Shown: positions 1 to 19,376 of the stretch, piece after piece | Numbering within the stretch: position 1 is the stretch's first letter | How the letters are laid out: every line of letters begins with the position of its first letter | Source: Cytophagales bacterium | GTDB lineage: Bacteria > Bacteroidota > Bacteroidia > Cytophagales > UBA9547 | Reading direction: 5' to 3' | Length of the DNA stretch: 27,707 bases | Assembly (NCBI GenBank): GCA_046718985.1 | Contig: JBDNDT010000001.1 | Span: 1-27,707 of the forward strand | Made by a program: the position numbers and the translations under genes | The notes under the pieces: generated by a model | Told to the model about the DNA's origin: nothing | What the model saw: the letters and a program-made list of their open reading frames with translations, nothing else | The model's database searches: none

Positions 1-3000
1 TGTTATAGAAATTTGCATCCCAATTTAGGTCAATCTTTGAAGATGAAACATTGATAATTTGAACATTTTTAGGAGCTTCGCAAACAGGGTCTGTAAGTTT
101 AATTTCTAACTTCACAAACTGTGAGCTTGGCAAAGTGCTATTACACATAGTGTAAATATACACATCAATTTCAGAATTTCTTGGAAGGTTTGTGAGAGTT
201 ATACTATTGGTTGAAACAAATCTGTCTATTCCAAGATTGGGGTTAGTTCCCTTTGGAGCCCACGTAACCTTATAAGATGAAAACACATTGTTATCCCATG
301 ACAAAGCTACTGTTCTTCCTGTGATTTGACCAACTATGACATTAGTTGGTGCAGTGCAAGGCAATGAAGAGAAGTAATAAGGACCTGAGTATAGTTTTTC
401 ATCGTTGGCGCATTGAGTGTTTAGGTATAATTCGTAATTTCTTCCAACAACTAATTCCGAAATCAAAATTGAATCTACTGTAATTCCATTTATGGCTTGT
501 GGGCTACCTATACCTAGTGTAAAAGGACTAAATGAATAAATAGCATTGACGGGATTGGGTGAAGTTGACCATTTAATGGATACTTGATCGCTTGATACCT
601 GAGATATTTCATTTGCAAACAATAGATCACAGTTACTATTAATACTACCAAAACTCAAAACTGAATATCCAAATAAGTGTTTACTTTTGCTATTATTAGC
701 CAAAGGAGTGATGGAATACAATGGGCTGTTAGGCGCTTTTTTATTTAAAAGTGCCAAAGTATTATTATTCAAATCTGATTGAGATAAGATAGTATAAGAA
801 GCGGTGTCGGCAGAAGTTGGGAAAACTCCAAATACATTTGAACCAACAGAAGGCAAAGAAACTTGTGTTGATTTTAAGCCATTTTTCCAAGACAGCAGTT
901 GGATTCCCTTTGTTTTTTTAATATCTACAACTTTGATTTGATACTCTTCACTGTCGAAAAACACTTGATTGCCGGTCCAATTGGCATCTTCAGGATACAT
1001 ATACACACTGGTATCTCCCACAAATGCACCTGACACTGACCAATAGTTATGTGTTGAAACACTGTTGTTTAAAGTTACATTCGACACTCTATCAACGGGT
1101 TGACCTTCTCCCTCGTCAAAACTGAAATTCATGAACAAACCATCTTCATTACCTATAGCTCTTCTACACATTAAGTTTCTAATCTCATCTTCTGTTCTTG
1201 CTTTTTTCCACACCCTCACTTCATCAACAGAGCCATTAAGAAACTCTGACAAATCATTGGAATGACCTAAATAGAAAGTGCCGTTTGGAACTGAAGCATT
1301 GGCAGGAATTGAAATGACTGTTCCATCAAAAACTCCATTTACATAGATTCTAACTTCCGCACCTTTACGCACCATAGCAATGTGAGACCATTGGTTTTCA
1401 GGCAAAAAGTGTTTGGTGTTTTTCCATCCGATGCCACCTGCCCACCATATACCCACTGATCCATTTCCACCACTACCACCTGTTTTTGAATAAAAAGCCG
1501 GTGCTGCCACCAATGAAGAATTACCAAAAGCCATTACACCGTTTGCACCACTTCTTGCTCGTTGAAAAACCCAAGCTTCTAAAGTAAAGTCTCCAGTGCC
1601 TATATTATGATTAATAACATTAGACGAAATGGCACGTTGAGAACCTGTAAAATTATAGCTGTAAGATGGCGCTGAAACTACTAAATCTTTGGTTTTAAAA
1701 GAAATTGGACCCACCCAATCGCTTGCAGAACCAATAGAAGAGCAAGTATCTTTTACATATACATAATATTCTTGGTCAGGATTTAAGCCTGAAAGAGTAA
1801 AATTAACTAAACCCCCAACACCTTTAACGGTTGTTCCTTGCGAAAAACCAGGATTAAAAGGTACGGTGCTATATTCCATCACCCATGATCCTGAATTAGA
1901 TATCCATGACAAATTGGTTTTAGTAAAACCTGGATCACCTTCAAGCTTGAAAGCTGTTGGTGCATTACATGTTTCCAAAGCAAACGATGCAATCATTAGC
2001 TGAGCGTTGGAATTATTGGTAACGGTCTTAGTGAAAGACTTTTTTGTATTGCTAAAACCAACAGTTTGCTCCCAAGATGAAAGCCTGTTGAACAGTTGAA
2101 TACTATTTGAATCAGTAACTGCTTTTTCAAAATCAGTATAATCCAACTTAACATCCATTGTAGTTGAAGCACTTACATTTGTGGCAAAGTATCCAAACAA
2201 TGTATAGTTTTCTTTTGGATTAGGAAGACCTATTCTGTATTCGGGTAGTACACTATCAATTGCATACACATGCACTCCGTTAGTGTTGGAAATATTTGAT
2301 AAACTCAATGTTCCATAACCTGAACTTGACACAGAAACAGGATTGGTATAATTACCATATGCGAAAGCAGACCTATTTCCAACAGGAACGGAAGAGACCT
2401 GCCAAAGTGCATTTGTTAAAGCTCCGGATTTGGTGTATCTGGCATCAATGACAGCATTTCCTACTTTATTTTTGACCAAAGAACCATTGTTTTCATTGAA
2501 ATCGTAATACACCAATAAGTTTGATTTATCGGCTTCATTTGTTATGGATTGACACATGTATCTTCTCAAACTGTCTAAAGGTCTAACACCTTTCCATATT
2601 CTAAACTCGTCGAATCCTCCATTGAATTTTTGAGCATAAGAACCTGTACCGTCTTGTCCTAATCTGAAATTTAAAGCTCCTTTGAGTGTTGCTGTGGGAG
2701 TCATTGCTGCTGTCAGATTTCCTGATGCGGCTTGCACACCATTCACATAAGCAATTACTCTGGGTGTGCTGCCATTTCTGTCAAACACCACTGCAATGTG
2801 ATTCCATCTTCCTACGATGCCTTGAGGCACGTTGATGCTATTGAGGTCGAAACGTGTTCCCGAACCGAATCTGGCATTCACTTTAAAAGTAGTTGCACTA
2901 GTGTTGGCGAGAACAATCCCAATATTGTTTCCAGAATCCCAATTTTTGTTACCAAACCATGCAGGATCAGAATTGGTACTGTTCACAAACATCCAGGTTT

Positions 3001-3169
3001 CGATTGTGAAGTTAGAAGTTGCCAAACTATCATTTAAAGCAGCACCCATATTTAGGTGTTCGTTTGCAATTGTACCTTCAAGGCGCACGAAATGACCTGA
3101 AGAATTTTGCCTTTGGGCAAAAGCGTGGCTAAGCATACCTAGTATGCACGCCAAAAACAGTTTTTTCAT
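1..3169 (-). CDS. Large secreted LamG (ConA-like) x2 + fibronectin type III repeat protein, 3' end beyond left window edge (>1050 aa)
   Basis: Manual translation from ATG at 3169 gives MKKLFLACILGMLSHAFAQ (signal peptide). LamG motifs follow (SNFTIETW...WNHIAVVFDR...YVNG...FNGGFDEFRIW; GDFTLEAWV...WSHIAMVR...YVNG...LNGSVDEVRVW), plus FN3-like units (CNAPTA...LSW...LSGLNPDQEYYVYV; CTAPTNV...LSW; CEAPKNV...LNW). The frame was spot-checked at several points and stays open to base 2. It is absent from the ORF track, consistent with no in-window stop. Confidence 0.88.
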   Translation of the reverse strand, partial: MKKLFLACILGMLSHAFAQRQNSSGHFVRLEGTIANEHLNMGAALNDSLATSNFTIETWMFVNSTNSDPAWFGNKNWDSGNNIGIVLANTSATTFKVNARFGSGTRFDLNSINVPQGIVGRWNHIAVVFDRNGSTPRVIAYVNGVQAASGNLTAAMTPTATLKGALNFRLGQDGTGSYAQKFNGGFDEFRIWKGVRPLDSLRRYMCQSITNEADKSNLLVYYDFNENNGSLVKNKVGNAVIDARYTKSGALTNALWQVSSVPVGNRSAFAYGNYTNPVSVSSSGYGTLSLSNISNTNGVHVYAIDSVLPEYRIGLPNPKENYTLFGYFATNVSASTTMDVKLDYTDFEKAVTDSNSIQLFNRLSSWEQTVGFSNTKKSFTKTVTNNSNAQLMIASFALETCNAPTAFKLEGDPGFTKTNLSWISNSGSWVMEYSTVPFNPGFSQGTTVKGVGGLVNFTLSGLNPDQEYYVYVKDTCSSIGSASDWVGPISFKTKDLVVSAPSYSYNFTGSQRAISSNVINHNIGTGDFTLEAWVFQRARSGANGVMAFGNSSLVAAPAFYSKTGGSGGNGSVGIWWAGGIGWKNTKHFLPENQWSHIAMVRKGAEVRIYVNGVFDGTVISIPANASVPNGTFYLGHSNDLSEFLNGSVDEVRVWKKARTEDEIRNLMCRRAIGNEDGLFMNFSFDEGEGQPVDRVSNVTLNNSVSTHNYWSVSGAFVGDTSVYMYPEDANWTGNQVFFDSEEYQIKVVDIKKTKGIQLLSWKNGLKSTQVSLPSVGSNVFGVFPTSADTASYTILSQSDLNNNTLALLNKKAPNSPLYSITPLANNSKSKHLFGYSVLSFGSINSNCDLLFANEISQVSSDQVSIKWSTSPNPVNAIYSFSPFTLGIGSPQAINGITVDSILISELVVGRNYELYLNTQCANDEKLYSGPYYFSSLPCTAPTNVIVGQITGRTVALSWDNNVFSSYKVTWAPKGTNPNLGIDRFVSTNSITLTNLPRNSEIDVYIYTMCNSTLPSSQFVKLEIKLTDPVCEAPKNVQIINVSSSKIDLNWDANFYN

Positions 3170-3200
3170 AAAAATTGTGTTTTGTTTGTTTAGTGTATTT

Positions 3201-4475
3201 TTATTTTTTGATTACTTTTCTCACGGTTACCTTTGAACCGTTTACAACTTTGAGGCTATAGATACCTTTTGGCAAATCAGAAATATCAAGCTCAGCAAGC
3301 ATGCTTGTGATGTCAAACATTCCATTTAGAATTATATTTCCATTTGGGCTCAGCAAAGAGTAATTTGCTCCACCAGCATCAACAGATTTTAGGGCAATTT
3401 TAAACACTCCTTCATTTGGGTTGGGGAAAACACCAAAGCCAAAATCATCCATTTTAGAGAATCTGTCATTTTCAACACTAGTTACCTCTTCATATTTCAC
3501 CCAAGATTTACCGTCTAAGTTCCAACCAGTCACAGTATCGGGCAAAATTGGGCTGTTATTTGGTCCGGCGTATCTAAGCATATGTGCTATTGCAGTAACA
3601 GCAATATCAGTTAGAACAGGCACGTTTTTAATATCTTCAAGTTTGGGCTGTCTGTTAGGGATTTGATAACTTCCCGGGTCAGAACCGGTGATCTGTAATT
3701 TAGGCATACCACCGCCTGAGGCAAACCACCAAATTTGTCTCTCTGTGTTTGAATTACCACCGTGGCTGGTGCCTGTGCCTCCATGATCGGTTGTAGCCAA
3801 AATCATCCAATCTTCTTGGTCATAAGTTTCGCGGTCTTTGAGAGCTTGAATGACTTCTGCCAACTCAGAATCCACTTTTTTGATGTTAGAGATATAATTT
3901 GCATTTGTTGGGTTAAATCCGCTGGCGTGTCCTGTGGCATCTACTTCGTCATAATGGATAAAAAGTATGTCTAAATCTTCGTCCAACAATTGAATTTTAG
4001 CAGCATTTGTTACTGCTTTTTGGCTGTGGTTTCCGGCATCAATGGCTTTATCCCATTTTGAGTTGAAAACATAACCTCCTGGGTTGATATCCTTCTCTCC
4101 CATTTGATTCCATGTGATGATTTGCACCGCTTTCACATCAGGTCTAAATTGTTTTACACGATTAGGAAAATAAGGGTAGTTGGTGAAATTAGCACCTGCA
4201 TAAGTATTGGATCTAACATTATGTTTAGCTTCCCACACACCTGTCATCATTGATGACCAAGACGGTCCGCTAGAAGTGATGCCAAGATGCCAAGAGTCAA
4301 ATGTGTAAGTTCCTGCGGCCATCAGCGAGTCCAATGTTGGTGTATCTATTTGCCTCAAAGCATCAGACCTCACGCCATCTATACCTATAAAAAGCAATTT
4401 TGGCTTTTTAACAACAGGTTGAGACCATACTGATGCCCCAGCCAAGAAAATCAAACTTAACCATTTTGTTTTCAT
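3201..4475 (-). CDS. Alkaline phosphatase superfamily (NPP/phosphodiesterase-like) enzyme with T9SS type A C-terminal sorting domain
   Basis: Signal peptide; metal-ligand motifs IGIDGVR, DEVDATGH, TDHGG and SHGG; nucleophile motif TSSGPSWSSMMTG aligning to NPP TxTxPxHxSxxTG; C-terminal VFPNPNEG...LDISDLPKGIYSLKV...KVIK typical of a T9SS CTD. Confidence 0.88.
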   Translation of the reverse strand: MKTKWLSLIFLAGASVWSQPVVKKPKLLFIGIDGVRSDALRQIDTPTLDSLMAAGTYTFDSWHLGITSSGPSWSSMMTGVWEAKHNVRSNTYAGANFTNYPYFPNRVKQFRPDVKAVQIITWNQMGEKDINPGGYVFNSKWDKAIDAGNHSQKAVTNAAKIQLLDEDLDILFIHYDEVDATGHASGFNPTNANYISNIKKVDSELAEVIQALKDRETYDQEDWMILATTDHGGTGTSHGGNSNTERQIWWFASGGGMPKLQITGSDPGSYQIPNRQPKLEDIKNVPVLTDIAVTAIAHMLRYAGPNNSPILPDTVTGWNLDGKSWVKYEEVTSVENDRFSKMDDFGFGVFPNPNEGVFKIALKSVDAGGANYSLLSPNGNIILNGMFDITSMLAELDISDLPKGIYSLKVVNGSKVTVRKVIKK

Positions 4476-4496
4476 ATTATTTTGTGTTTAAAATTT

Positions 4497-7400
4497 TTAA
4501 TCCAAATTAAATCTTAGCCCTAATTGTACCCTTGCTGAGTAATACTCAACCTTGACAGGTCTTTCTCTTTGCCCTCTATAAATCACAAAAGGGGCATTGT
4601 TGAGATTGTTAACTTCCAAAAATGTTGAGAAGTATTTACTTATTTGATAAGCAAAAGAAAAGTCAAGAGTTGAAATTCTACCCATAAACAAATCAAAATC
4701 AGTATTTTGGGCTATGTTACTTTGATTGGTGACAGGATCTGTGTAAGCTATTAAATTCAACTCCATCAAATATGAAGACTTATGATTGAGAGCCAGCCTT
4801 GTAGTGATTTTATTATTTTCAAAAAACACACCTACATTTCCTACAAAAGGTGCTTGTCTTGGAAATGGCTGTAACTCTACTCTCGTAGGAATACGCATAC
4901 GTGAATAACTTAATGTAAAATTGGCATCTAAACCAAAATCTTTAAATATTCCCGGTAAAAAAGACATCTTTCTTTTTATACCACTTTCCATTCCGACTAT
5001 AAATGCATTTGGAGCGTTTTCAAAACGATTGGTGATGAATGCAGTTTGTTGATTTTCGACACTTATTGTATCAAAAGCCAAATAGATATGGTCTGTTACA
5101 TATTTGTAAAAACCAGTTACATAAATCATTCCTTTATTTCCCCAATAATGGTCAATACCCAAATCGGAGTTGGTGGAATAAGTTGGTTTTAAATTGGGAT
5201 TGCCTCTAGTGCGTACAAAATTTGAGTAGTCAACTATGGGGGCACCAGGCTTTATTTCATTGAAGTTAGCCCTTCTTAATGAGCGAGTTACGGCTAATCT
5301 TAACACTGTATTTGGGTTCAAATCAAACCTGATTGTCAAAGAAGGCAATAATGACAGATAGTTTTTTCCGGCTGAGAGATTGTTGGTTTCAAATATCCTA
5401 TTTCCTGTTGCGAAGTCAACTGAGTCAGTCTTAACATTCAATGCTGTAACTTGAGGAGTAGTGTACTCTAATCTCAATCCGGTATTGATACTCCATTTGT
5501 CGTTAAATTTATAATCACCCATCAAATATCCTGAATACACACTCTCCCTGTATGAATAATTTGATGCTATAAACAAATCATATGATGCTTCAGGAGGCAG
5601 ATCGGGACCATATGGGATTTTCTCTAAATATTGATTTTGATACCTGTTTATGAATTCGTTTGTTTCATCTTTGGTCAAAAAACGGTTTTGAAACCTTGGG
5701 TCTGCATAAGGAGAACCGATTGACTTGAGGTAAGTATTGTAGAGGGGTATGTTCATTGTATTAAAATTCTCTAAAGAAATCACATCTCCCCCAAGCTTCG
5801 AGTCATCTTTGAGCCAATATTCAATCCCAACCTTACGTTGACCCGTTTTGGTTCTAAATTTTAAGCCTGATTTTAGTTTAAACTTTGAATTGAATTTATG
5901 CTCATAATCTGACTGAATGACAATTGGGTCACTTTCCCGAGTGTTGTTTGTTTCAGAATATGCCCTGTTTAACAGAAATTTCTGATAATCTACTGCAAAC
6001 GGGTCGTTAGGTCTGTTGGTCCATTTAGGGATTATGGCTTCATGGTGATCGCCTGCACCTTTTAAAGGACTATCGATAGCTAAATATTTGTTTCTTGAAG
6101 AATAATCAACGATGTTAGAGGCATCGTCAATGTGATCTATTGTGTAAAAAGAACCATCATCACGTTGATAAATATAATCATAGAAATCAACTGACTGTTT
6201 AAATTCTGTAACAAAGTAGCCGTTTCTGGGGTCATTTCCTTTAAATGGTACTGGTCCGTATTTAAAGCGACTGTGATAAGTTGCTACTTTGAAATCCAAC
6301 ACTGATTTTTCATTGAATTTATGTTGCAAAGAAATATTGCCTCCAAAAAAACGGGTGATTTGAATGTTATGAATATTTTGTAACAGAATGGCATTTCCCG
6401 TTCCATCGGCATAATTATACAATCGTTTTCTATTCCATTCATCATCTTTCATGTTCCCAAGAATTCCGGTTGCTGAAAGCTTGGTTCTTTGCGAAAATTT
6501 ATATTCCAGACCCCCATTCAATCCAATAGTTTGTCTATGACCCAAATAATTTCTCAATTCTAATCTGTTAACTACCTGGTTGTTTTCTAAACCGCCGCCA
6601 TACAATACTTGATAATTATCAGTTCCCCAAGCCCGGTTGTAAATGGAGGCAGACATAACATAGCCGAAATTGCCATTTTTAGATCGGTCACCATACAAAA
6701 TTTCACCTGAGTAAATAGGTCCTTGAGCCTTAAAATTGTAACCCGAACCAATTTGAGCTTTCAACATTTTTTTGTTGGGAGAATAACGAGTGAGAAAATT
6801 GGCACTTCCGCCAATTGCATCTCCTTCCACATCTGCTGTCAAAGATTTTGCAACAATCACATATTCAATCATGCTTGAGGGGAAAATGTCGAAATTGAGC
6901 GCTCTTGACTTCGATTCTTCGTCAGCAACAGGCATGCGGTCTCCGTTTACCAAGTTTGAACTCCAGTCAATGGGTGTACCCCTAAAGGATACGAACCTTC
7001 CTTCGCCGTGGTCTTTTTCCACAACCACACCTGACAAACGTTGAACGGCCTCTGCGGCATTTTTGTCAGGCAATTTGGATATGCCTTCAGCAGCTATTAC
7101 ATTCACAATTTTGGTAGATTGCTTGGTGATGTTGATTGCTTTTTGTTCACCATGGTTCATTTCTCCTTTTATGATGACTTCATCTAAGGTGTTTTTATCC
7201 GAAATGTCATCGTTGAGTATGATTTTGTTTAAGTTCAAAACACCTGAGGGAGGAACTTTTGCGGATATAGATTTCGTTTCATAACCCATGTACATAACTT
7301 CAATCTGAACATCCCCTTCAGCGACATTTAGCAACACAAAATATCCATCCAAGTCAGTTTCAGCAATAATACCTTGGCTTTTAACCATCACCACAACACC

Positions 7401-7514
7401 GGGCAAATTACCATTTCTGTCGGCAATCACACCTGTAACATTGGCTTTTCCTTGTGCTTGAAGCCTTTCACAAATTATCAACAACAAACCCAAAAATATA
7501 AGCTGAATTTTCAT
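4497..7514 (-). CDS. TonB-dependent receptor with N-terminal carboxypeptidase-regulatory-like domain
   Basis: 1005 aa; signal peptide; N-terminal GVIAD...LPGVVV...ETDLDGYF...YMGY; plug ISKLPDKNAAEAVQRLSGV; barrel features GNPNLKPTYSTNSDL and NNLNN; C-terminal beta-strand VQLGLRFNL. Confidence 0.93.
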   Translation of the reverse strand: MKIQLIFLGLLLIICERLQAQGKANVTGVIADRNGNLPGVVVMVKSQGIIAETDLDGYFVLLNVAEGDVQIEVMYMGYETKSISAKVPPSGVLNLNKIILNDDISDKNTLDEVIIKGEMNHGEQKAINITKQSTKIVNVIAAEGISKLPDKNAAEAVQRLSGVVVEKDHGEGRFVSFRGTPIDWSSNLVNGDRMPVADEESKSRALNFDIFPSSMIEYVIVAKSLTADVEGDAIGGSANFLTRYSPNKKMLKAQIGSGYNFKAQGPIYSGEILYGDRSKNGNFGYVMSASIYNRAWGTDNYQVLYGGGLENNQVVNRLELRNYLGHRQTIGLNGGLEYKFSQRTKLSATGILGNMKDDEWNRKRLYNYADGTGNAILLQNIHNIQITRFFGGNISLQHKFNEKSVLDFKVATYHSRFKYGPVPFKGNDPRNGYFVTEFKQSVDFYDYIYQRDDGSFYTIDHIDDASNIVDYSSRNKYLAIDSPLKGAGDHHEAIIPKWTNRPNDPFAVDYQKFLLNRAYSETNNTRESDPIVIQSDYEHKFNSKFKLKSGLKFRTKTGQRKVGIEYWLKDDSKLGGDVISLENFNTMNIPLYNTYLKSIGSPYADPRFQNRFLTKDETNEFINRYQNQYLEKIPYGPDLPPEASYDLFIASNYSYRESVYSGYLMGDYKFNDKWSINTGLRLEYTTPQVTALNVKTDSVDFATGNRIFETNNLSAGKNYLSLLPSLTIRFDLNPNTVLRLAVTRSLRRANFNEIKPGAPIVDYSNFVRTRGNPNLKPTYSTNSDLGIDHYWGNKGMIYVTGFYKYVTDHIYLAFDTISVENQQTAFITNRFENAPNAFIVGMESGIKRKMSFLPGIFKDFGLDANFTLSYSRMRIPTRVELQPFPRQAPFVGNVGVFFENNKITTRLALNHKSSYLMELNLIAYTDPVTNQSNIAQNTDFDLFMGRISTLDFSFAYQISKYFSTFLEVNNLNNAPFVIYRGQRERPVKVEYYSARVQLGLRFNLD

Positions 7515-7933
7515 TAGTCCTTACCTTCACATTTACCACAATGACAATGCCCATTGTGAGATTCTACAAACAACCCGTTTTTAATATCTGTCATTTTCAC
7601 CACAGAGGCAACATCTCGCATTACGGCAGCTTTATCAATTAAATTGTCAAAATCTTTTGCTTTGAGATAGCTGTCATGCCCATCCAAAGCCCACCTTACC
7701 CATTTTTCAAAAGATTTCAATAATTGCTGATAGGCTACAATAACCACTGTGTCTTTGTTATTCTTTTTTTGCTTTAACTCGTCGAAATTTAACACTCGTG
7801 CATAAAATTCATTTTTAAGCGCAAAAGCTTTTATGCTGTCTCCTTTATGGTCATGCGTATGAATGTGTTGAGCCGATATGGAAAAACAATTCATTAACAT
7901 TAATTTCACAAATAACATATTAAACAGCTTCAT
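7514..7933 (-). CDS. Small exported hypothetical protein with His-rich N-terminus and His/Cys-rich C-terminus
   Basis: 139 aa; signal-peptide-like start; HIHTHDH after the predicted cleavage; C-terminal HNGHCHCGKC; stop overlaps the TBDR start (TAATG at 7516-7512). Confidence 0.75.
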   Translation of the reverse strand: MKLFNMLFVKLMLMNCFSISAQHIHTHDHKGDSIKAFALKNEFYARVLNFDELKQKKNNKDTVVIVAYQQLLKSFEKWVRWALDGHDSYLKAKDFDNLIDKAAVMRDVASVVKMTDIKNGLFVESHNGHCHCGKCEGKD

Positions 7934-7975
7934 TTTTTCTCACATTCAGTGTTTTATAAACAGCGGTTAATGATA

Positions 7976-8071
7976 CAAATATCACACCTAAATTTGACTA
8001 TTTGTAAATTAACATGTTATCAAATTGTTAAATTTTAATTATATGTAAACTTTAAATAGAATTATGTAAAC
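7976..8071 (-). promoter_or_regulatory. Putative promoter/operator region for the small protein-TBDR-phosphatase-LamG operon
   Basis: On the minus strand, a near-consensus -7 element GATATTTG (7983-7976) is preceded by half-sites TTTACA (8008), ATAACA (8020) and TTAACA (8031), with further TTTACA at 8049 and 8070. 8017-8031 is a one-mismatch copy of TTAAC-N5-GTTAA. Confidence 0.5.
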
Positions 8072-8107
8072 ATCTAGTTATTAAATCGTGTCTATAAAAG
8101 TCAAAGC

Positions 8108-10105
8108 TTATTGACACTTTTGCCATTTTATTAATTGAAAATTGCCTTTTAAATCTGTTAAACGAATTAAATAAAGCCCCTTGTCAACCATTGGTAGTAC
8201 AAAAGAACTCTCATTATCTGACAGTATCTGTTGCTCTAAAATCTTATTTCCTGTTATAGCGACCACCTCCAAATTAATCGCTTCTCTTGTGTTTAACACT
8301 AGCTTGTCATTATGCACAAAAGCATCAAAACTTTTTGGATTTGACAAACCTAGGTGCAATGTTTTACTATATGTAAACTTATCATTATAAACAGCCACAA
8401 CCCTAACATACTTTTCTTGCTTTCCAATTCGGTGATAGTATGTTAATAGACCATTAAATGTTACTATTTCACCCGACCTAAAATCTTTACCTTCTTCTGT
8501 GGCATGTTGAATCAAAAAATATTTCAGCCCCTCTGTTTTCTTTATGTTCCATTTCAACAGGTCTGACTCTATTTCAATTTCAAATTCATCCTCAGATAGT
8601 ATAATCAGTTCAGATGCAATTATACATGATGTAAAATTCCGTTCTTCTCCTGTGTTTGGACTCAAAACCATCACTCCGTCACCATCAATATTACCATTTC
8701 CTAAAGAAATTGTGCTATTTACAATCAACTCACCTGCATTTGCAGCGCCTAATGCCAAACTGTGCACGTTGGAGTAATCAGTACAATAAGAAGAAACACC
8801 ATCAAATGACATAGACAAAGTATGGACACCACTATTATACATTGATCCTGAACCACCGGTGTTATTAGTGGCTACTAAATAAACATCAAATCCGTAATCA
8901 CAAAAAACAGAAAAATCAATAGGATACACATCAGAAGCATCAAGGTTAGCTGAAACACCGGAAAAGACTATTACATAAGCGTTTTCAGGAATAATGCCAT
9001 TGGCAGGCACATTTTTCAAAGGGCTGCAATTCGGCTCGGGAGCTGCCATACTGATGCTGTTATACCTATTTAATCTTTTGCTATCATTCACCAATCTTTG
9101 CATTTGAGTTGCGTTGCAATTTGTTGTATTACAGTTTCCTGAATAAGGTATTCCTGATGCCGGTTCATCAAAAGCATTGTAAACAATTCCATATTCTCTG
9201 TCACTCCATGAAAACCTTAAACTATCAAGTTGGAAAGGTTCAGAGCCTGTTTTGAACAACAACCACTCATTCTTAATTTCAGACCCTCCACATGAATTTG
9301 ACAAAAAGGCTACTAATTTTGGACAAGACTCGATTGATTTATTGGCCAAATTATACCCACCCATTCGTTCAAGTTCGGTTTCGGACAAAGATCTGTTATA
9401 CATTGCAACAGATGATACATAAATTGGATTGTCATCTCCATTATCATCTGCAAAAAGCAAAACCGAAGGATTTGTAGCTGAACTAGGATACAAAGATATT
9501 CTTCCATTTAAAGCAACTCCTGTTGTGTAAGTATGGATTAAATGACCATCAATATACAGTTTTACATGTTCACCCAATTTGGCAACAAACGCAATCCTAT
9601 ACCATTGATCCTGAATCAATCTCCTTGAAGACAAAGGTGTTGTCGCTCCACCCATCCATGGAAATCCATTGCCGTTAACTGCAAAATCAACATCGTTTGA
9701 ATTGGTGTTGCTTGTTTGCAAAAGAGAATAAAAACCATTGTTAGTTTGACCATTAAAAAGGTTGAATTCAGGGAATTTAACGTCATATACTATAGTGAAT
9801 TCGTTAGTAAATGTTGTGCTGCCACCGTTGGCAGGAACAGGGTTGGCAAATCTCAAATAAGAACCTTTTGGCACTATCACAGCTTTATCGTCGCTGTACC
9901 CTGCTGCACTAACCACAGAAAGACTTCCGGTTCCTACAAATTCCAAGTTTGGCCCTATTGTCGATTTCAACAAATCTGTTACGTCGTTGAAATCCCAAAG
10001 CGCTACCCTTCCTGGTATGTCATTAAAATCTTTTAGTTGGTCATACAAGGGTGTTTGTGCAATCATTAAAGAACAAGTGAAATAACACAATATATGTCGT
10101 ATCAT
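8108..10105 (-). CDS. Secreted protein with N-terminal LamG-like domain, Cys-containing middle domain and degenerate T9SS-type C-terminus
   Basis: Short signal peptide; ConA/LamG-like pattern (ALWDFN...NEFTIVYDVK...QWYRIAFV...KLYIDG...LLFADDNG...AMYNRSLS); eight Cys in the middle region; C-terminal LLKWN...YFLIQHA...YSKTL module and VDKGLYLIRL resembling a T9SS cargo tail. Confidence 0.72.
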   Translation of the reverse strand: MIRHILCYFTCSLMIAQTPLYDQLKDFNDIPGRVALWDFNDVTDLLKSTIGPNLEFVGTGSLSVVSAAGYSDDKAVIVPKGSYLRFANPVPANGGSTTFTNEFTIVYDVKFPEFNLFNGQTNNGFYSLLQTSNTNSNDVDFAVNGNGFPWMGGATTPLSSRRLIQDQWYRIAFVAKLGEHVKLYIDGHLIHTYTTGVALNGRISLYPSSATNPSVLLFADDNGDDNPIYVSSVAMYNRSLSETELERMGGYNLANKSIESCPKLVAFLSNSCGGSEIKNEWLLFKTGSEPFQLDSLRFSWSDREYGIVYNAFDEPASGIPYSGNCNTTNCNATQMQRLVNDSKRLNRYNSISMAAPEPNCSPLKNVPANGIIPENAYVIVFSGVSANLDASDVYPIDFSVFCDYGFDVYLVATNNTGGSGSMYNSGVHTLSMSFDGVSSYCTDYSNVHSLALGAANAGELIVNSTISLGNGNIDGDGVMVLSPNTGEERNFTSCIIASELIILSEDEFEIEIESDLLKWNIKKTEGLKYFLIQHATEEGKDFRSGEIVTFNGLLTYYHRIGKQEKYVRVVAVYNDKFTYSKTLHLGLSNPKSFDAFVHNDKLVLNTREAINLEVVAITGNKILEQQILSDNESSFVLPMVDKGLYLIRLTDLKGNFQLIKWQKCQ

Positions 10106-10128
10106 AAATCAGTTGGAAGATTATGGCG

Positions 10129-10195
10129 CAAAAGTAATTTCCAAATATTAACTCATTATTAACTATATGTTAAAATTATTTACTATTTGTAAATT
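10129..10195 (-). promoter_or_regulatory. Bacteroidota sigma-70 promoter with upstream repeat/operator
   Basis: Minus-strand TACTTTTG (10136-10129) matches the TAnnTTTG -7 consensus. TTAAYA half-sites start at 10173, 10162 and 10151 (11-bp period), and the palindrome TTAACTATATGTTAA lies at 10159-10173. Confidence 0.65.
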
Positions 10196-10268
10196 TCTGT
10201 ACTTCAAAAAGAATATGCAAAACCTCCATAGCTGATTTTAAATAAGTATGAGATAGTAAATATGAAAC

Positions 10269-10305
10269 AAAAAAGGCTATAATTTCATTATAAGAAAGTA
10301 TAGCC
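10269..10305 (-). terminator. Intrinsic terminator downstream of the PhnX-like gene
   Basis: Minus strand reads GGCTATA-C-TTTC-TTATAAT-GAAA-T-TATAGCC followed by TTTTTT, about 25 bp after the stop at 10331. Confidence 0.65.
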
Positions 10306-10330
10306 AACATATAAGACTGAACAATATGCT

Positions 10331-11083
10331 TTAACAGACTTGCAACTCCATTTGTTCTGTATTTAGCAAGCTTATCAGTTCATACAAACTTCCCAACAAC
10401 CCATCATTAGGATATGGCATTAGCAATTCTCTCGTATGTGTTCCATTGGTGATACCGAGTGTCAAAAAACATCCCGCGGCTTTACCTGATTGCAAATCAG
10501 AAGGGGTATCTCCTATGCTAATCACCTTTGAAGAATCATCAATTCCAAAAATATCCATGGCCTTTAGAATCATATCGGGAAAAGGTCTCCCCCTTTTCAC
10601 TTCATCTCCTGCTATTGACAAATCAATAAAAGAGTTTCCTATACTTTTATAATTTTTATCCAAACCTTTGAGCCAACCCAGTTTTCGAAGAATTATATCT
10701 GTTACTTCTCTATAAAAACCAGTCGTTAAGGCTATTTTAATACCATTTAACCTCAAAAACGAAAAAAGCTCCAAACATCCTTCTGTCGGCACAATTTCTG
10801 ATGTGTTATAATGATCTTCAAGAATAGATTTGAATACAGCATAAGAATGATCCACTCTTTCGGTTACCATTTCTATTGGCAAGCCTAATTTTTCAGACCA
10901 AAGCACCTCAAAAACATACCTTTTAGACCAACCTTGGACTGATTTAATTCTTTCAGCCGACAAACTTAATCCGGTTTGCTCACAAGCTTTAGCAAAACAA
11001 CCTTCAACCTCAGAATTGTCTCTAACGGTAGTCCCCGCCATGTCCAGCACTACAAGAGAGATGTTTTCAATAATTTTACCCAT
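10331..11083 (-). CDS. phnX: PhnX-like HAD phosphonatase (phosphonoacetaldehyde hydrolase-like, TIGR03351-type)
   Basis: HAD motif I DMAGT, cap motif QGWSK with Lys at the Schiff-base position, motif II LTTGF, motif III GRPFPDMI, motif IV GDTPSDLQSGKAAG. The ATG at 11083 is preferred over the TTG at 11101. Substrate is inferred. Confidence 0.8.
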   Translation of the reverse strand: MGKIIENISLVVLDMAGTTVRDNSEVEGCFAKACEQTGLSLSAERIKSVQGWSKRYVFEVLWSEKLGLPIEMVTERVDHSYAVFKSILEDHYNTSEIVPTEGCLELFSFLRLNGIKIALTTGFYREVTDIILRKLGWLKGLDKNYKSIGNSFIDLSIAGDEVKRGRPFPDMILKAMDIFGIDDSSKVISIGDTPSDLQSGKAAGCFLTLGITNGTHTRELLMPYPNDGLLGSLYELISLLNTEQMELQVC

Positions 11084-11134
11084 TTTAAAGTAACTATTCA
11101 AATATTCTTAAAATTTACAATATCATATTGTTTA

Positions 11135-11142
11135 CAAATGTA
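11135..11142 (-). promoter_or_regulatory. -7 promoter element for the phnX-like gene
   Basis: Minus-strand TACATTTG matches TAnnTTTG about 50 bp upstream of the ATG at 11083, divergent from the DUF5690 promoter. Confidence 0.5.
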
Positions 11143-11181
11143 TAAGAAATTTTCGAAAAAAGTTTACTATTAGTTAAATAC

Positions 11182-11226
11182 TTAACAATATGTTAACATT
11201 TAAATATCTTTCTTGCGCTATATTTG
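11182..11226 (+). promoter_or_regulatory. Promoter/operator for the DUF5690-oxidoreductase operon
   Basis: TATATTTG (-7) at 11219-11226; TTAACA at 11182 and 11193 (11 bp apart); palindrome TTAACAATATGTTAA at 11182-11196. Confidence 0.68.
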
Positions 11227-11243
11227 CAACAATATTCCATATT

Positions 11244-12572
11244 ATGAAAATAAAAAAGACACTCTCAACAAATGAATACCTATTCAGCATTTGGTGCATA
11301 ATAGCTTCATTTGGAACTTATTTCTGCATGTATGCTTTCAGAAAACCCTTTAACTCTGCAAGCTATGAAGGGTATTATTTCTTAGGAATGGGTTATAAAT
11401 CAGTTCTTATCATTTCCCAAGTTTTAGGATATATGATTTCAAAGTTTACCGGAGTGAAAGTCATTTCTGAATTAAAAGCAAAATCTCGTAGTAGAGTTAT
11501 AACTGTTTTAGTTGTTTCATCATATTTGCCCCTTGTTCTGTTTGCTTTCGTACCCACTCCATATCATTTAATATGCTTGTTTTTAAACGGTCTTCCTTTG
11601 GGGATGGTATTTGGGGTGGTGTTTAGTTACCTAGAAGGTCGGAGACTTACCGAATTAATAGTAAGCGGACTGACAATTAGCATCATTTTCTCTTCTAGTA
11701 TTCTCAAATCAATAGCTCAATACCTGATTCAAGTGGTCGGAGTGAATGAATTTAGCATGCCTATGGTGACTGCCAGTATATTCTTGCCTTTATTTTTTGG
11801 TTTTGTGTGGATGCTTGAGCAAATCCCGGCTCCTAATAACGAAGATATTGCTCTCAAAACCATAAGAGAACCTATGAGTAACAGAGAAAAAATAGAAATG
11901 TTAGCTAAGTATGGTATGGGAATTTTTCTGCTTTGTTTCAGCTATATATTGCTAACGGTGTGCCGCGATTTTAGAGATAATTTTGGGGTTGAGATTTGGA
12001 GCGAACTAGGATATGGGAATCATTCAGAAATTTACGCATTAGGGGAAATGCCTGTTGGTTTAATTACACTTTTGGGTTTGATGTACCTTTCAACCATTAA
12101 AAACAACATTAAAGGATTTAATCAAAGTTTATATTTTATTTTGACTGGTGGTCTGGTTTTGGGATGTAGTACTTTAATGTTTAAAATTGGATTAATTACT
12201 CCTCTTGTTTGGATGATCACTGCCGGAAGTGGACTGTTTTTTGCCTATACTCCTTTGCAATCTGTGGTCTTTGACCGATTGATAGCTTTGTTTAAAATGA
12301 AAGGCAACGCCGGTTTTTTGATATATATATGTGATTCTACAGGTTATATGTTTAGTGTAGCACTTCTATTGGGCAAAGAATGGATTAATTACAGCGACTC
12401 TTGGTCAATTCTCTTTGTTAATATCTGTCTATTCACATCATTTGGTGTATTAGCCTCTGTATTTATGGCGATTTTGTTTTTCAGTTTTAAAAAAAAGTGG
12501 CAACTGCTTTATGAGAACATTCACAAAAAAGATATCAAAAATTTAATTATTCATTTATCAAAACAATCTTAA
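11244..12572 (+). CDS. DUF5690-family MFS-like permease, putative phosphonate/organophosphate transporter
   Basis: Multiple hydrophobic TM segments in two halves; N-terminal FGTYFCMYAFRKPF and C-half RDFRDNF, recalled as typical of DUF5690. The start is moved to ATG 11244 because the -7 promoter element lies downstream of the ORF-track ATG at 11190. Confidence 0.8.
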   Translation: MKIKKTLSTNEYLFSIWCIIASFGTYFCMYAFRKPFNSASYEGYYFLGMGYKSVLIISQVLGYMISKFTGVKVISELKAKSRSRVITVLVVSSYLPLVLFAFVPTPYHLICLFLNGLPLGMVFGVVFSYLEGRRLTELIVSGLTISIIFSSSILKSIAQYLIQVVGVNEFSMPMVTASIFLPLFFGFVWMLEQIPAPNNEDIALKTIREPMSNREKIEMLAKYGMGIFLLCFSYILLTVCRDFRDNFGVEIWSELGYGNHSEIYALGEMPVGLITLLGLMYLSTIKNNIKGFNQSLYFILTGGLVLGCSTLMFKIGLITPLVWMITAGSGLFFAYTPLQSVVFDRLIALFKMKGNAGFLIYICDSTGYMFSVALLLGKEWINYSDSWSILFVNICLFTSFGVLASVFMAILFFSFKKKWQLLYENIHKKDIKNLIIHLSKQS

Positions 12573-12575
12573 AAA

Positions 12576-13733
12576 ATGACTAAAAAAGACTTATGTATAG
12601 TTGGTGGAGGAATATTAGGAACCGCTCATGCCTATCACGCTTTGGAAAAAGGACTGAGTGTAACACTTATAGAAAGGGAGGGTGCGCCGGTTCAATCATC
12701 AACTATGAATTTTGGACAGGTTGTGCCATCTGGTCAAACAGGCATTTGGAGAACCTATGGCAAGAGAAGTGTGGAGATTTATAAGCATATTCAGAAACAA
12801 GGCAACATCCACATCTCATCTTTTGGATCTTACTATTTGGCTGAAACAGAAGGAGAGCAAGCAGTGCTAGAAGAATTTATGCCTAAATTGATTGAGGAAG
12901 GTTTTGATGTGTCAATTCTTAGCACTAATGAACTTTGTGAAAAAATTCCATTTCTAAAAAAAGATTATGCAAAAATAGGAATCTTTGTTTCAGATGAGGT
13001 GTCTGCAGAACCCCGAAAAACAGTAAAAGCCATTCAAGATTTTTTGGTTGAAAAACATCCTCAATTGTTTAATATTGAATATCTCAACACTGCCATTCAT
13101 GTGGAGCAGACTAACAATGCCTCTATTGTGAAAACAGCAAAAGGGCAATCACATGAAGCAGAAAAAATCATAATCTGCACCGGAAGAGATTATTACACCC
13201 TGTTTCCTGAACTATACGCCCAATCAGGTTTAATAGTGAGTAAGCTCAATATGATGCGAACCCTACCTATCACCACTCACACAATAAAAGGAAATCTGCT
13301 CACCGGCACCACCATTCGCAGATATGATGGTTTTAAAGAAACCAAAGCCTACCATTTACTGGAAAAAGCTCCTAGATATGAGATTTTAAAAGAGTTAGGT
13401 ATTCATATTCTTTTTAAACAAGGTGCTGATGGCTCAATAATTATTGGCGATTCACATGAATATGCGCCTGCCAATGAAACCTACAAGCTTGACTTTGAGG
13501 TGAGGATGGACATGGCAAATGTTATCATCAATGAAGCCCAAAAAGTTCTTGATTTACCTTCGTGGGAAATGACAAGCCATTGGGCAGGTTTTTATGCACA
13601 ACATGAAACTAAAGAAGTATTTGAAAGAAGTATTAGCGATCGCATTCACATAGTCACTGGAATTGGCGGCAAAGGCATGACAACAAGTCTTGGTTTTGCA
13701 GAAAATTCTTTAGAGAAAATATTGAATACTTAA
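12576..13733 (+). CDS. FAD-dependent oxidoreductase, DAO/TIGR03364-type (phosphonate-cluster associated)
   Basis: Rossmann motif IVGGGILG...LIER; family-like SSTMNFGQVVPSG; IIGDSHEY; C-terminal VTGIGGKGMT; sits 3 bp after the DUF5690 stop. Confidence 0.85.
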   Translation: MTKKDLCIVGGGILGTAHAYHALEKGLSVTLIEREGAPVQSSTMNFGQVVPSGQTGIWRTYGKRSVEIYKHIQKQGNIHISSFGSYYLAETEGEQAVLEEFMPKLIEEGFDVSILSTNELCEKIPFLKKDYAKIGIFVSDEVSAEPRKTVKAIQDFLVEKHPQLFNIEYLNTAIHVEQTNNASIVKTAKGQSHEAEKIIICTGRDYYTLFPELYAQSGLIVSKLNMMRTLPITTHTIKGNLLTGTTIRRYDGFKETKAYHLLEKAPRYEILKELGIHILFKQGADGSIIIGDSHEYAPANETYKLDFEVRMDMANVIINEAQKVLDLPSWEMTSHWAGFYAQHETKEVFERSISDRIHIVTGIGGKGMTTSLGFAENSLEKILNT

Positions 13734-13756
13734 AAAAGGGCTTTTAGGCCCTTTTT
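13733..13756. terminator. Bidirectional intrinsic terminator
   Basis: AAAAAGGGC-TTTTAG-GCCCTTTTT perfect 9-bp stem between the convergent oxidoreductase and XRE genes, touching both stop codons. Confidence 0.8.
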
Positions 13757-14336
13757 ATTCTTGGTTTATGAAATAAATTTTGAACATCATTGCTTCAATA
13801 TCATTTTTGTTTTCAACAGAGTGAGGAATATTGCCATCAAAATATAAAGTATCACCTTTTTCTAATCTTATTTGTTCATTCCCTATTCCATAATAAACAG
13901 AACCTGACAAGACATGCACCAGCTCCATACCATTCGTGCTAAGTGGTTCACGGTAAACATTTGGATTTATAGTTACAATATTTGCTCTTATATTGATTTT
14001 GTTCACAAAAGTTGAAACTAATGATCTATAAACTAGGCCTTTGGAATCTTCCCTAGTTTCTATCATGCCTTGGTCTTTTCTAACCAGCAAATATTCTGTT
14101 TTTGCAACAACATTTGTGTTCACATCCTCAACCAAATCAGCCAAATTTACTTCTAAAGCTTTGCTGATGCTTAGCAAAACCGGTAATGAGGGCATTGTTC
14201 TGAAATTTTCTATCTTAGACAATAAACCCATTGAAATATTAGCACCTTCTGCAACTGTCTTCATGTTGAGGCCTTTAGCTTTTCTTATTTCGTTTATTTT
14301 TTTGCCTATAAACCCCAATGATGATTCTTTTTCCAT
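13755..14336 (-). CDS. XRE-family HTH transcriptional regulator with C-terminal cupin domain
   Basis: IGKKINEIRKAKGLNMKTVAEGANISMGLLSKIEN...PSL HTH; cupin ELVHVLSG...LEKGDTLYFDGNIPHS. Confidence 0.92.
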   Translation of the reverse strand: MEKESSLGFIGKKINEIRKAKGLNMKTVAEGANISMGLLSKIENFRTMPSLPVLLSISKALEVNLADLVEDVNTNVVAKTEYLLVRKDQGMIETREDSKGLVYRSLVSTFVNKINIRANIVTINPNVYREPLSTNGMELVHVLSGSVYYGIGNEQIRLEKGDTLYFDGNIPHSVENKNDIEAMMFKIYFINQE

Positions 14337-14573: not shown

Positions 14574-15368
14574 TCAAAACGAAAACTTATATTGTCTCTT
14601 GTTTCTGCTGAGGATATCACAAAATAAATAAAAAAACGGACCGTTTGAAATGTCTATTTGTCGGTTATTTGTCCTCATGTTATATTGATGAATATAACCA
14701 ATTTCTATTCGTGTCCAATCCCAGAATCGATAGCCGAGACCAACATAATTTCTCGATTGAGAAAAATAATTAGTCCCATAGTTTTTTCCGAATTCTATAT
14801 GAACTTCTGAATAAGTTGATAGATAAATGGTGTTGTTTTTGTAAAAATAATCAGAGTTCAATGGAGTTCTTAATCTCAATCTATATCTGAATCTAAAATT
14901 ATGCACAGCGCCATCAGGCAAATCAATTCCACGCCAACGAGATTCGAACCTGAGTCGATGGGTAAAATTGTGCCTTCCAAAATATACATAATTGTTGATT
15001 TGAAGTGTTGATCTCAATTCTCTTTCAAATGAACGACCAAAATCATTTTCTTGTGGAAACCTAGGTGCTGACATAACCATAGCAATGGGGTTAAAATGAA
15101 TTCTGGTATATTTTGTTGCTTGATATGCAATCCACAACCTCATACTAAACCTGAGAGGATGTTTCCATAAATCATATTGACCTAGTTCGCTTTGCCTTCT
15201 ATAAACCACATCAATTTCCCAAGCCCATTTGGTTGAATCATTGAAAAAGTCAGCGATGGTATATTTTGTGTACATCACCTTGTTGTTTAGAAACTCTCTA
15301 CTTTGTGAGAAAGCATCTTGCTGGAGTGAGCAAGCCAAAAATAATATCAAAACGATCTGATTTCTCAT
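14574..15368 (-). CDS. Outer-membrane beta-barrel protein, DUF2490-like
   Basis: Signal peptide; alternating aromatic beta-strands; HRLRFESRW and FRFRYRLRLRTPL; SRNYVGLGY...IEIGYIHQY; terminal Phe. Confidence 0.72.
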   Translation of the reverse strand: MRNQIVLILFLACSLQQDAFSQSREFLNNKVMYTKYTIADFFNDSTKWAWEIDVVYRRQSELGQYDLWKHPLRFSMRLWIAYQATKYTRIHFNPIAMVMSAPRFPQENDFGRSFERELRSTLQINNYVYFGRHNFTHRLRFESRWRGIDLPDGAVHNFRFRYRLRLRTPLNSDYFYKNNTIYLSTYSEVHIEFGKNYGTNYFSQSRNYVGLGYRFWDWTRIEIGYIHQYNMRTNNRQIDISNGPFFYLFCDILSRNKRQYKFSF

Positions 15369-17332: not shown

Positions 17333-18024
17333 TTTCCGGTCTTTTTAAATTTTAACCTCCTGAATAAAAAAAAGCCTGCATCAAAATTGAAAGTATGCAT
17401 CATGCCTTGGTCAGCTCTTTCAAACTTAACGAATCCATAATAAGATCTTGATCGAAAGAAAAAATCTCGGTGTTCAGCACTGAACCCAAAGAACCAGCCG
17501 AAATCAACATCATGGAAATTTTTGGGTTGAAATCTAACTTCAGATGAATCACTCAAAATATGAAATGTTTGAGAGGTCACAGAATTTAATCTTGTTCCCA
17601 GATTTGCCCCTAGCAAAAACCTAAAATCAAACTTCTTCAACACGGGCAATTCAAAGGCAAAAGAAATAGGGATATTGAGGTATAAACTTTTGATTTTTTC
17701 TGTTTGGGCATTGGTTTTATAAAAAAAGTTTCGCTCTGTCATATTCAATCCTGTGCTCATGAACATCAAGCCATACATAGGGAAATATTTCTCTATCCCA
17801 AAGTTGAAACCCGGTGCATAAGCAAGATTTCTGAATAGTTTACTGTAATACAAATTTGAAGTGCTGACACCTGCTAAGAAATAAACATCGTCAAAAAAAA
17901 TAGCAACTTTTGAAAGATTCACTTTAGAAATCATCAACGAGTCGGCGTCTTCATTTTGTATTTGGGCGTTGACTGAAATCAGTGAAAGCAACCCCAACAA
18001 AAGAAAAAATGAAACTTTTTTCAT
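17329..18024 (-). CDS. Outer-membrane beta-barrel (porin-family, OmpA-like barrel) protein
   Basis: Signal peptide from MKKVSFF (ATG 18024; the ORF-track TTG at 18054 is less likely); PGFNFGI, YLNIPISF and DFGWFFG strands typical of Bacteroidota 8-stranded barrels. Confidence 0.72.
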   Translation of the reverse strand: MKKVSFFLLLGLLSLISVNAQIQNEDADSLMISKVNLSKVAIFFDDVYFLAGVSTSNLYYSKLFRNLAYAPGFNFGIEKYFPMYGLMFMSTGLNMTERNFFYKTNAQTEKIKSLYLNIPISFAFELPVLKKFDFRFLLGANLGTRLNSVTSQTFHILSDSSEVRFQPKNFHDVDFGWFFGFSAEHRDFFFRSRSYYGFVKFERADQGMMHTFNFDAGFFLFRRLKFKKTGK

Positions 18025-18493
18025 GAAAAGAAGTGAATCAAAGAGATGATTCAAAGACCATCATTTTGACTCTTTTTCTAGCATTTGAGAACGAAAATAA
18101 AACCAAATCTAAAGAAAATAGATATTAGAGCCAAAAAAATCCCATTCAAAACACTAATAGTGATTTTAAATGGGCAATAATCAAAACGAATGAACATTAC
18201 GGTTGTTTCTTTTGGTGATTTGACAATAAGCAGAAGTGTTGTTTGTGAAAGATATGGTAAAACTTACTAATCTTGTTAGGTTTCTCCACCGGTCAATTTT
18301 TTCAGGATTTGACGACAACTGCCAAGGGAATGTGAAATAGAACAGATTATTTCAAGATTATCATTTTGTTAAGAATCGTAAACAGCAATATTAATACACA
18401 GGTTAAACATCTGTTTATCAGCACAATATCTCTTGTTGTGTTTTGTCATAAAAACCACTGACTTTTATCATTATTCCCCATTTGCACTAAGCT

Positions 18494-19364: not shown

Positions 19365-19376
19365 TTGAACACAGCA

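Follow-up and report, generated by a model that had tools for sequence, protein, structure and literature searches.

The window analyzed here, which is the entire 27.7-kb contig (JBDNDT010000001.1) of a Bacteroidota metagenome-assembled genome (MAG; 2.8 Mb, 476 contigs, 91.5% complete), carries a nine-gene locus that is probably a system for the acquisition and degradation of aminoalkylphosphonates, built in the style of a polysaccharide utilization locus (PUL) or a Flavobacterium Pus cluster, with a cell-envelope arm coupled to a catabolic core. The arm comprises a small His/Cys-rich exported protein, a TonB-dependent receptor (TBDR), a secreted phosphoesterase of the AlkP family and a giant exported LamG protein (LamG1), and the core consists of a PhnX-like hydrolase of the haloacid dehalogenase (HAD) type, a DUF5690 permease and a PbfD-type amine oxidase; a second LamG protein (LamG2) and an XRE-cupin regulator complete the set. 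Open reading frame (ORF) calling and Pfam/NCBIfam scans of the window proteins recovered all nine genes with the families given in an initial annotation. A functional link between arm and core is supported by the combination of gene order conserved across families, domain fusion, non-orthologous replacement and an operator common to both.

Most natural 2-aminoethylphosphonate (AEP) is esterified in lipids and glycans, and published catabolic schemes begin with the free compound. A 2023 review is silent on the release of AEP from such conjugates (PMC10574752). The locus and its relatives nominate candidates for these missing first steps, in the form of an esterase family, a receptor, a binding protein and a regulator-operator pair. 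Were the arm to prove dedicated to bound phosphonates, no earlier esterase would have been assigned to natural conjugates of AEP, and no earlier TBDR to a phosphonate. The locus and its relatives also widen the Pus concept beyond soil Flavobacterium, to further families of Bacteroidota, and beyond SusCD complexes, to a lid-less design based on the type IX secretion system (T9SS). Several carriers of the locus are in culture, namely Owenweeksia hongkongensis DSM 17368, Crocinitomix algicola, Neolewinella aurantiaca and Taibaiella sp. KBW10, and the proposal is therefore directly testable.

Linkage of the envelope arm to the catabolic core

Linkage was assessed from both ends: sequence extending ~18 kb to either side of 31 hits to TIGR03364, the family of the PbfD-type oxidoreductase, was searched with the window proteins, and seven contexts of the AlkP family carrying a T9SS C-terminal domain (AlkP-CTD) were inspected. 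TIGR03364 was detected in 27 of 401 sampled Bacteroidota genomes, that of the window included, and in 2 of the 21 genomes belonging to the family of the window, which makes the locus accessory. The initial annotation had proposed synteny of arm and core in other genomes as a check on its reading, and such synteny was found with either anchor. In five of the seven AlkP-anchored contexts (Owenweeksia hongkongensis, Crocinitomix algicola, Neolewinella aurantiaca, Taibaiella sp. KBW10 and the MAG locus L073), TBDR, AlkP and LamG genes follow one another in that order beside core genes encoding DUF5690, a HAD protein, an XRE-cupin protein and a DAO-family (PbfD-like) oxidoreductase. Among the 401 sampled genomes, only three besides that of the window contain a close AlkP homologue, and all three encode PbfD, compared with 26 of 400 overall.

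The core-anchored comparison adds four genomes in which the receptor adjoins the core. Genome G075 holds, in one block, genes for the PhnX-like protein, DUF5690, XRE-cupin, small protein, TBDR, AlkP-CTD (53% identical to that of the window), a 1219-aa LamG/FN3-CTD protein and PbfD. Over its full length, the window TBDR is 45% identical to the G075 receptor and 33–36% identical to the receptors of G310, G382 and G040, and each of these receptors adjoins the core. G310 and G382 pair their receptors (33–34%) with a single PF01663-Laminin_G_3-DUF4983 fusion, which carries a T9SS tail in G310. The pbfD gene itself lies 3′ of the LamG gene, on the same strand and after a gap of 20–73 bp, in G075, Crocinitomix, Taibaiella and L073. 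Genome G010, from the family of the window, has a different TBDR and a T9SS protein, and replaces AlkP with a Metallophos-PKD-LamGx2-CTD protein. This replacement (L008:7322-10738) is 1138 aa long and combines Pur_ac_phosph_N, Metallophos, PKD and two LamG domains with a T9SS tail.

Other lineages carry true SusC/SusD pairs beside the core, which adjoin PbfD in nine sampled genomes, together with exported PF01663 or Metallophos proteins bearing CHB_HEX_C/Fn3_assoc and PA14 modules. Within 15 kb of the core, an outer-membrane receptor is present at 15 of the 31 loci and an exported phosphoesterase at 18, and several of the loci lacking one or the other end at contig ends. A second design was observed in G243 (L043:2018-3406, 6285-7649 and 10806-12653), and similarly in G088 and G422, where PbfD is accompanied by two recurring ORFs of ~450–460 aa situated between core genes. 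The G243-type cluster also encodes exported Metallophos-PA14 and PF01663-PA14 enzymes and a histidine kinase with an NMT1/THI5-like periplasmic domain that may be a phosphonate sensor.

A palindromic operator and its candidate regulator

The promoters of the locus share the palindrome TTAAC-N5-GTTAA, which occurs with at most one mismatch at positions 8017, 10148, 10159, 11163 and 11182, and once more at 18358. These six sites in the intergenic DNA of the window compare with 0.24 expected from composition-matched shuffles of the same intergenic segments (n = 1000), none of which reached six. Five of the sites fall in three promoter regions of the locus, which bears out the earlier claim of one motif in three promoters. 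The region preceding the operon of the envelope arm (7997-8031) contains the operator-like site TTATCAAATTGTTAA, that of LamG2 (10148-10194) contains overlapping sites at 10148 and 10159 (exact), and the divergent promoter between the PhnX-like and DUF5690 genes (11163-11196) contains sites at 11163 and 11182 (exact: TTAACAATATGTTAA). The first two regions additionally contain exact copies of the 13-mer ACTATTTGTAAAT at 7997 and 10182, which is not significant once mismatches are allowed. A scan for sigma-70 promoters was uninformative (72 found versus 65 expected).

The operator common to these promoters is genuine, and it is conserved beyond the genome of the window. In ~0.96 Mb of merged sequence flanking PbfD genes in 30 Bacteroidota genomes other than that of the window, the palindrome has a density of 1.66/kb in cluster promoter regions and 0.13/kb in other intergenic DNA, a ~13-fold enrichment that, like its nominal P value, is overstated because the compared genomes are related, and this tempers its weight in favor of the locus. 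At least one site lies in a cluster promoter region in 16 of the 30 genomes. The 15-mer TTAACAATATGTTAA recurs identically in the same PhnX-like/DUF5690 divergent promoter of G010, and the palindrome lies directly upstream of the TBDR arms of G075, G382, Owenweeksia, Taibaiella and the core-less loci L072 and L074.

The candidate binder of TTAAC-N5-GTTAA is the regulator encoded at 13755-14336 (− strand), in which domain scans identified an XRE-family helix-turn-helix (HTH) domain and a cupin domain. Its best NCBIfam match is PuuR, at 41.5 bits, far below the equivalog cut-off of 211, and its homologues are found in many other core loci. The region upstream of the regulator gene itself has no TTAAC-N5-GTTAA site in a scan allowing one mismatch. 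The ORF that follows pbfD in G010 was considered as a regulator and rejected; this ORF (L008:19166-19768) encodes a 200-aa protein with an HD-like LFHDIGH motif.

The catabolic core

The core is the published PhnW-independent route to phosphate, and its description in the initial annotation as a known association was correct. The PbfD-type FAD-dependent amine oxidase (12576-13733, + strand) scores 354.4 bits against TIGR03364 (354.1 in the genome search), above the curated cut-off of 285.1. This is the family of A. baumannii PbfD1, and PbfD enzymes are reported to convert both N-methyl-AEP and AEP to phosphonoacetaldehyde and to reject non-phosphonate analogues; the only two with characterized activity are PbfD1 itself and PbfD2 of Mariniblastus fucicola (PMC10590968). 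A PbfD and PhnX route without PhnW has been described in M. fucicola (PMC10590968). Neither PhnW nor phosphoenolpyruvate mutase was found in the 91.5% complete genome of the window, which leaves PbfD as the sole visible route to phosphonoacetaldehyde and implies that the substrate comes from outside the cell.

The gene for the PhnX-like HAD protein, a predicted phosphonoacetaldehyde hydrolase, lies at 10331-11101 (− strand). The best matches of this protein among solved structures are those of Bacillus cereus PhnX, and alignment to these (2IOF, 1RQL) pairs DMAGT with DWAGT and GWSK with GLLK, with GRPFP and GDTPSD present. The protein thereby keeps the Asp nucleophile, the Ala at Asp+2, the Schiff-base Lys53, Arg160, Asp186 and Asp190 (GRP, GDTxxD), and the catalytic residues are invariant or nearly so across 10 orthologues. 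Owenweeksia hongkongensis has a second HAD gene beside the PhnX-like one (L068:17607-18290), whose product has an ordinary DxDGT motif and no Schiff-base Lys and is therefore probably a phosphatase and not a phosphonatase.

The DUF5690 permease is called at 11190-12572 (+ strand; Pfam 453 bits), although its start is probably the ATG at 11244, because the corresponding Atlas record begins at residue 19. Atlas predicted structures match clusters of the major facilitator superfamily (MFS) with TM scores of 0.69–0.78, while neither the single sequence nor a profile gave a sequence match to solved structures. Residues R33 and K34 (YAFRKPF) and R241, D242, R244 and D245 (RDFRDNF) are invariant in 10 homologues.

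Proteins of the envelope arm

The genes for the small protein (7514-7933), the TBDR (4497-7514), AlkP (3201-4475) and LamG1 (2-3169), all on the − strand, are separated by intergenic gaps of −1, 21 and 31 bp and thus form one operon, led by the small gene, whose stop overlaps the TBDR start. Signal peptides are predicted in all exported proteins of the locus. LamG1 begins with the signal peptide MKKLFLACILGMLSHAFAQ and contains an fn3 domain in addition to two Laminin_G_3 domains; its C-terminus is missing where the gene runs into the contig end, so that the locus does continue past the left edge, as had been noted. Its full-length orthologues measure 1030–1229 aa and end in a T9SS sorting domain.

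AlkP is the only PF01663 protein encoded in the genome (65.3 bits versus a gathering threshold of 23) and carries a T9SS sorting domain (TIGR04183, 39.7 bits versus a cut-off of 23), as does each of the at least 444 sequences of the AlkP-CTD family. The T9SS translocon SprA is encoded in the genome; the SprA match (G000:C401:8-1849, middle part) contains three TGA and one TAG stops, which may reflect an assembly or frameshift error or a broken gene. The best matches of AlkP among solved sequences are the nucleotide pyrophosphatase/phosphodiesterases (NPPs) ENPP4, ENPP7 (alkaline sphingomyelinase) and ENPP5. Residues D33, S69, D179, H183, D230, H231 and H238 are invariant across 30 homologues, and D33, D179, H183, D230 and H231 align with the bimetal ligands of ENPP4 and ENPP7. 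The confident AlphaFold model of AlkP (mean pLDDT 87.7) confirms membership of the alkaline phosphatase (AP) superfamily, and the predicted fold points to no particular substrate.

The receptor belongs to the TIGR01782 type (376 bits versus a cut-off of 310). In agreement with its initial description as SusD-less, no SusD-family protein was found among the window proteins and no SusC model was listed for the receptor, so that the adjacent SusC-like/SusD-like pair by which PULs are recognized is absent from the window. The small protein upstream of it, of 139 aa, has the motifs HIHTHDH near its N-terminus and HNGHCHCGKC at its C-terminus and gave no family match. In six loci, that of the window included, the gene immediately preceding that of the TBDR encodes a small exported protein whose C-terminus forms a His-rich tail (for example KHHHHHHNHHHN, KHHHHGHE and KHHEADGDGDHTHN); the other five are L064:9419-9856, L069:6542-6901, L071:6533-6970, L073:6549-6911 and L074:6501-7013. 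These proteins share a loose motif, [FY]-D-x-[LV]-[IL]...R, and His- or Cys-rich C-terminal tails, and the three of the six that were scanned gave no Pfam family match. Their sequences are 14–18% identical, with a BLAST E value of 0.23, and homology among them is suggested by position and architecture.

LamG2 (8108-10105, − strand) is an exported protein with one Laminin_G_3 domain and a weak T9SS tail that falls below the TIGR04183 cut-off (19.8 versus 23). From sequence comparison it appears to be specific to the lineage of the window.

Proposed mechanism and alternative explanations

In the mechanism we propose, the LamG protein of the arm would tether glycoconjugates or lipids bearing phosphonates at the cell surface, where the secreted esterase would cut the P-O-C bond of the phosphonate ester and release a free aminoalkylphosphonate head group. 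Precedents by analogy for this step are the action of NPP7 on sphingomyelin and of NPP6 on glycerophosphocholine, and such specific chemistry on bound aminoalkylphosphonates is put forward tentatively, as something short of probable. The TBDR, energized by the nearby ExbBD-TonB system, would take up the product at low concentration, and the DUF5690 permease, with its predicted MFS-like fold, would serve as the inner-membrane importer. Judging by family membership and the enzymology of relatives, PbfD would then oxidize AEP or N-methyl-AEP to phosphonoacetaldehyde, and the PhnX-like hydrolase would cleave the C-P bond. The small His-tailed protein could handle metal, perhaps by loading the esterase with Zn in the periplasm before T9SS export, although this metal-handling role is a guess. 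The PuuR-like regulator would keep the regulon repressed, and binding of an amine such as AEP to its cupin domain would lift that repression. That the four-gene envelope module constitutes a dedicated surface machine, stripping and importing the head groups of phosphonolipids or phosphonoglycans under AEP-sensing XRE-cupin control, is a possibility that we hold with some doubt.

Several observations weigh against a coupled phosphonate system of this kind. The PhnX-like protein reaches neither of the curated cut-offs (TIGR01422, 90.6 versus 220; TIGR03351, 179.5 versus 218.9), and the equivalents of His56 and Tyr128 are not conserved in it; among the families first proposed for profile searches, TIGR03364, PF01663 and, for AlkP, TIGR04183 were recovered above cut-off and TIGR03351 was not. 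The AlkP nucleophile is Ser69 (ITSSGPSW), where NPPs have the Thr of TxTFPNH, and its fold matches sulfatases and NPPs about equally (Foldseek against the PDB, TM 0.35–0.51). Both LamG proteins had been counted in the surface arm; LamG1 does recur beside the core, but a tblastn search of the 31 core loci gave no counterpart of LamG2. In G010, where the operator is present, the XRE-cupin homologue is encoded on a different contig with no phosphonate genes near, which limits the regulator-operator pairing to a candidate. In G206, one of the three further sampled genomes that encode a close AlkP homologue, the AlkP-LamG fusion is not adjacent to the core but 40 kb away, and two of the seven AlkP-anchored contexts, L072 and L074, have the arm alone with no adjacent core. 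L074 additionally sits near a T9SS PhoX, and these core-less arms suggest that the arm may scavenge phosphodiesters more generally.

This last point leads to the principal alternative, in which the arm is a general scavenger of organophosphate diesters, such as the head groups of nucleic acids or phospholipids, that often lies near phosphonate genes only by virtue of a shared phosphorus-acquisition regulon and has no action on phosphonate esters. L072 and L074 fit such a role, as do the breadth of NPP-family enzymes as diesterases and the phospholipid-derived organophosphates targeted by published Pus loci. We nevertheless regard it as unlikely, though deserving of serious attention, since four genomes have pbfD within the arm operon, core genes surround five of the seven arms, and PbfD is encoded in each of the three sampled genomes that have a close homologue of AlkP; the operator, moreover, is common to arm and core promoters, those of the core-less arms included.

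The locus might instead serve nitrogen or amine catabolism, with a non-phosphonate amine as substrate, the HAD protein acting as an ordinary phosphatase and the arm supplying an aminated glycan or lipid. Such a role is improbable: the resemblance of the regulator to PuuR, the distant relationship of PbfD-type enzymes to PuuB and ThiO, and the sub-threshold scores of the PhnX-like protein would all accommodate it, but TIGR03364 is matched above cut-off, the characterized PbfD enzymes rejected non-phosphonate analogues, and the recurrent exported enzyme is a phosphoesterase. The HAD protein also has the PhnX signature of an Ala at Asp+2 and a Schiff-base Lys, unlike the neighboring DxDGT HAD of Owenweeksia. 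A chance juxtaposition of unrelated transcription units, with a functionless AT-rich motif, is highly improbable and is already contradicted by the comparative data; although the intergenic DNA is AT-rich and LamG2 is unique to the genome of the window, the same synteny recurs in at least five families, domain fusions occur, shuffles never reach the observed motif count and the palindrome is enriched 13-fold in orthologous promoter regions. Coupled acquisition and degradation of aminoalkylphosphonates accordingly remains the reading that we favor.

Relationship to known systems

The general concept of outer-membrane phosphorus-uptake clusters containing phnX is already published, while the gene set of the window is uncharacterized. 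In Flavobacterium, Pus clusters induced by low phosphate encode PusCD or orphan TonB-dependent transporters (TBDTs) along with diesterases, monoesterases, permeases, 'dao' and phnX (10.1101/719427; PMC8115612), and some PusCD clusters have been described that carry phnX, the 'dao' oxidoreductase and phosphonatases (Lidbury and colleagues; Connolly et al.). PusCD1 has been solved in complex with an inositol phosphate, which provides a precedent for the uptake of small organophosphates by a TBDT, and pusCD-like pairs often co-localize with aminophosphonate-hydrolyzing genes (10.64898/2026.09.03.749221). The suggestion in the initial annotation that the envelope arm may be undescribed was therefore overstated.

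The locus of the window has the set of genes that defines Pus loci, in which a TBDT is grouped with one or more exported phosphoesterases, an inner-membrane permease for organophosphorus compounds and cytoplasmic enzymes that release phosphorus. It differs from Pus loci in that its receptor is of the TIGR01782 type and is accompanied by neither a SusD-like lid nor a surface lipoprotein, its esterase and binding protein carry T9SS sorting domains instead of being periplasmic or lipoproteins, its operon is led by the small His-tailed protein, and its regulation would involve an XRE-cupin protein and a palindrome and not an ECF sigma/anti-sigma pair or PhoBR. This SusD-less, XRE-cupin variant with a T9SS esterase, LamG protein and His-tailed protein was not found in the literature searched, a search that was incomplete and gives weak evidence.

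The PbfD2 and PhnX system of M. fucicola (Zangelmi et al., 2023; PMC10590968) likewise combines a FAD-dependent amine oxidase with a PhnX-type hydrolase and lacks PhnW. The hydrolase of the window, however, belongs to the PhnX-like TIGR03351 branch, its permease is DUF5690 and not of the ATP-binding cassette (ABC) or AepP type, and the searched parts of that paper do not mention an envelope arm. AlkP shares with NPP6 and NPP7 (PDB 5TCD), and with NPP4 and NPP5, the two-metal core of the AP superfamily and its conserved Asp and His ligands, and NPP6 and NPP7 act outside the cell, where they cleave the head group off a lipid or glycerol ester; this is the chemistry proposed for AlkP. In addition to the Ser nucleophile, AlkP departs from the NPPs in replacement of the Asn and His of TxTFPNH, in the position of its last metal-binding His, 7 residues after DH, in an identity of <25% and in its T9SS tail.

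PULs that rely on T9SS, such as the chitin locus of Flavobacterium johnsoniae, follow the same logic of surface binding, extracellular hydrolysis, TonB uptake and cytoplasmic catabolism, but the window has neither a SusC/SusD pair nor carbohydrate-active enzymes, its hydrolase is a phosphoesterase and the end product would be phosphate. The regulator has the two-domain architecture of PuuR, the HTH-cupin putrescine-responsive repressor of E. coli, which regulates an amine-oxidizing pathway; the ligand and operator of the window protein are assigned by inference.

Genomic context

The sequence of the window is present in one sequencing run only, a DNA metagenome from a hot spring, and no RNA run holds the locus. 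Between the converging pbfD and regulator genes lies a terminator-like hairpin (13733-13756) with a 10-bp stem and T runs on both sides, which is probably a bidirectional terminator. Of the three genes between the regulator and exbB (14574-18054, − strand), one encodes a DUF2490 protein, one an OMP_b-brl_2 protein and one a protein of 655 aa that matches no family; they have no counterpart in the 31 related loci and thus appear to lie outside the system. An exbB-exbD-exbD-tonB operon follows at 18525-21360 (+ strand) and is a possible accessory. A copy of the palindrome with one mismatch (TTATCATTTTGTTAA, 18358-18372) stands as a single site ~150 bp before exbB, suggesting that the energizing ExbBD-TonB system may be co-regulated with the receptor.

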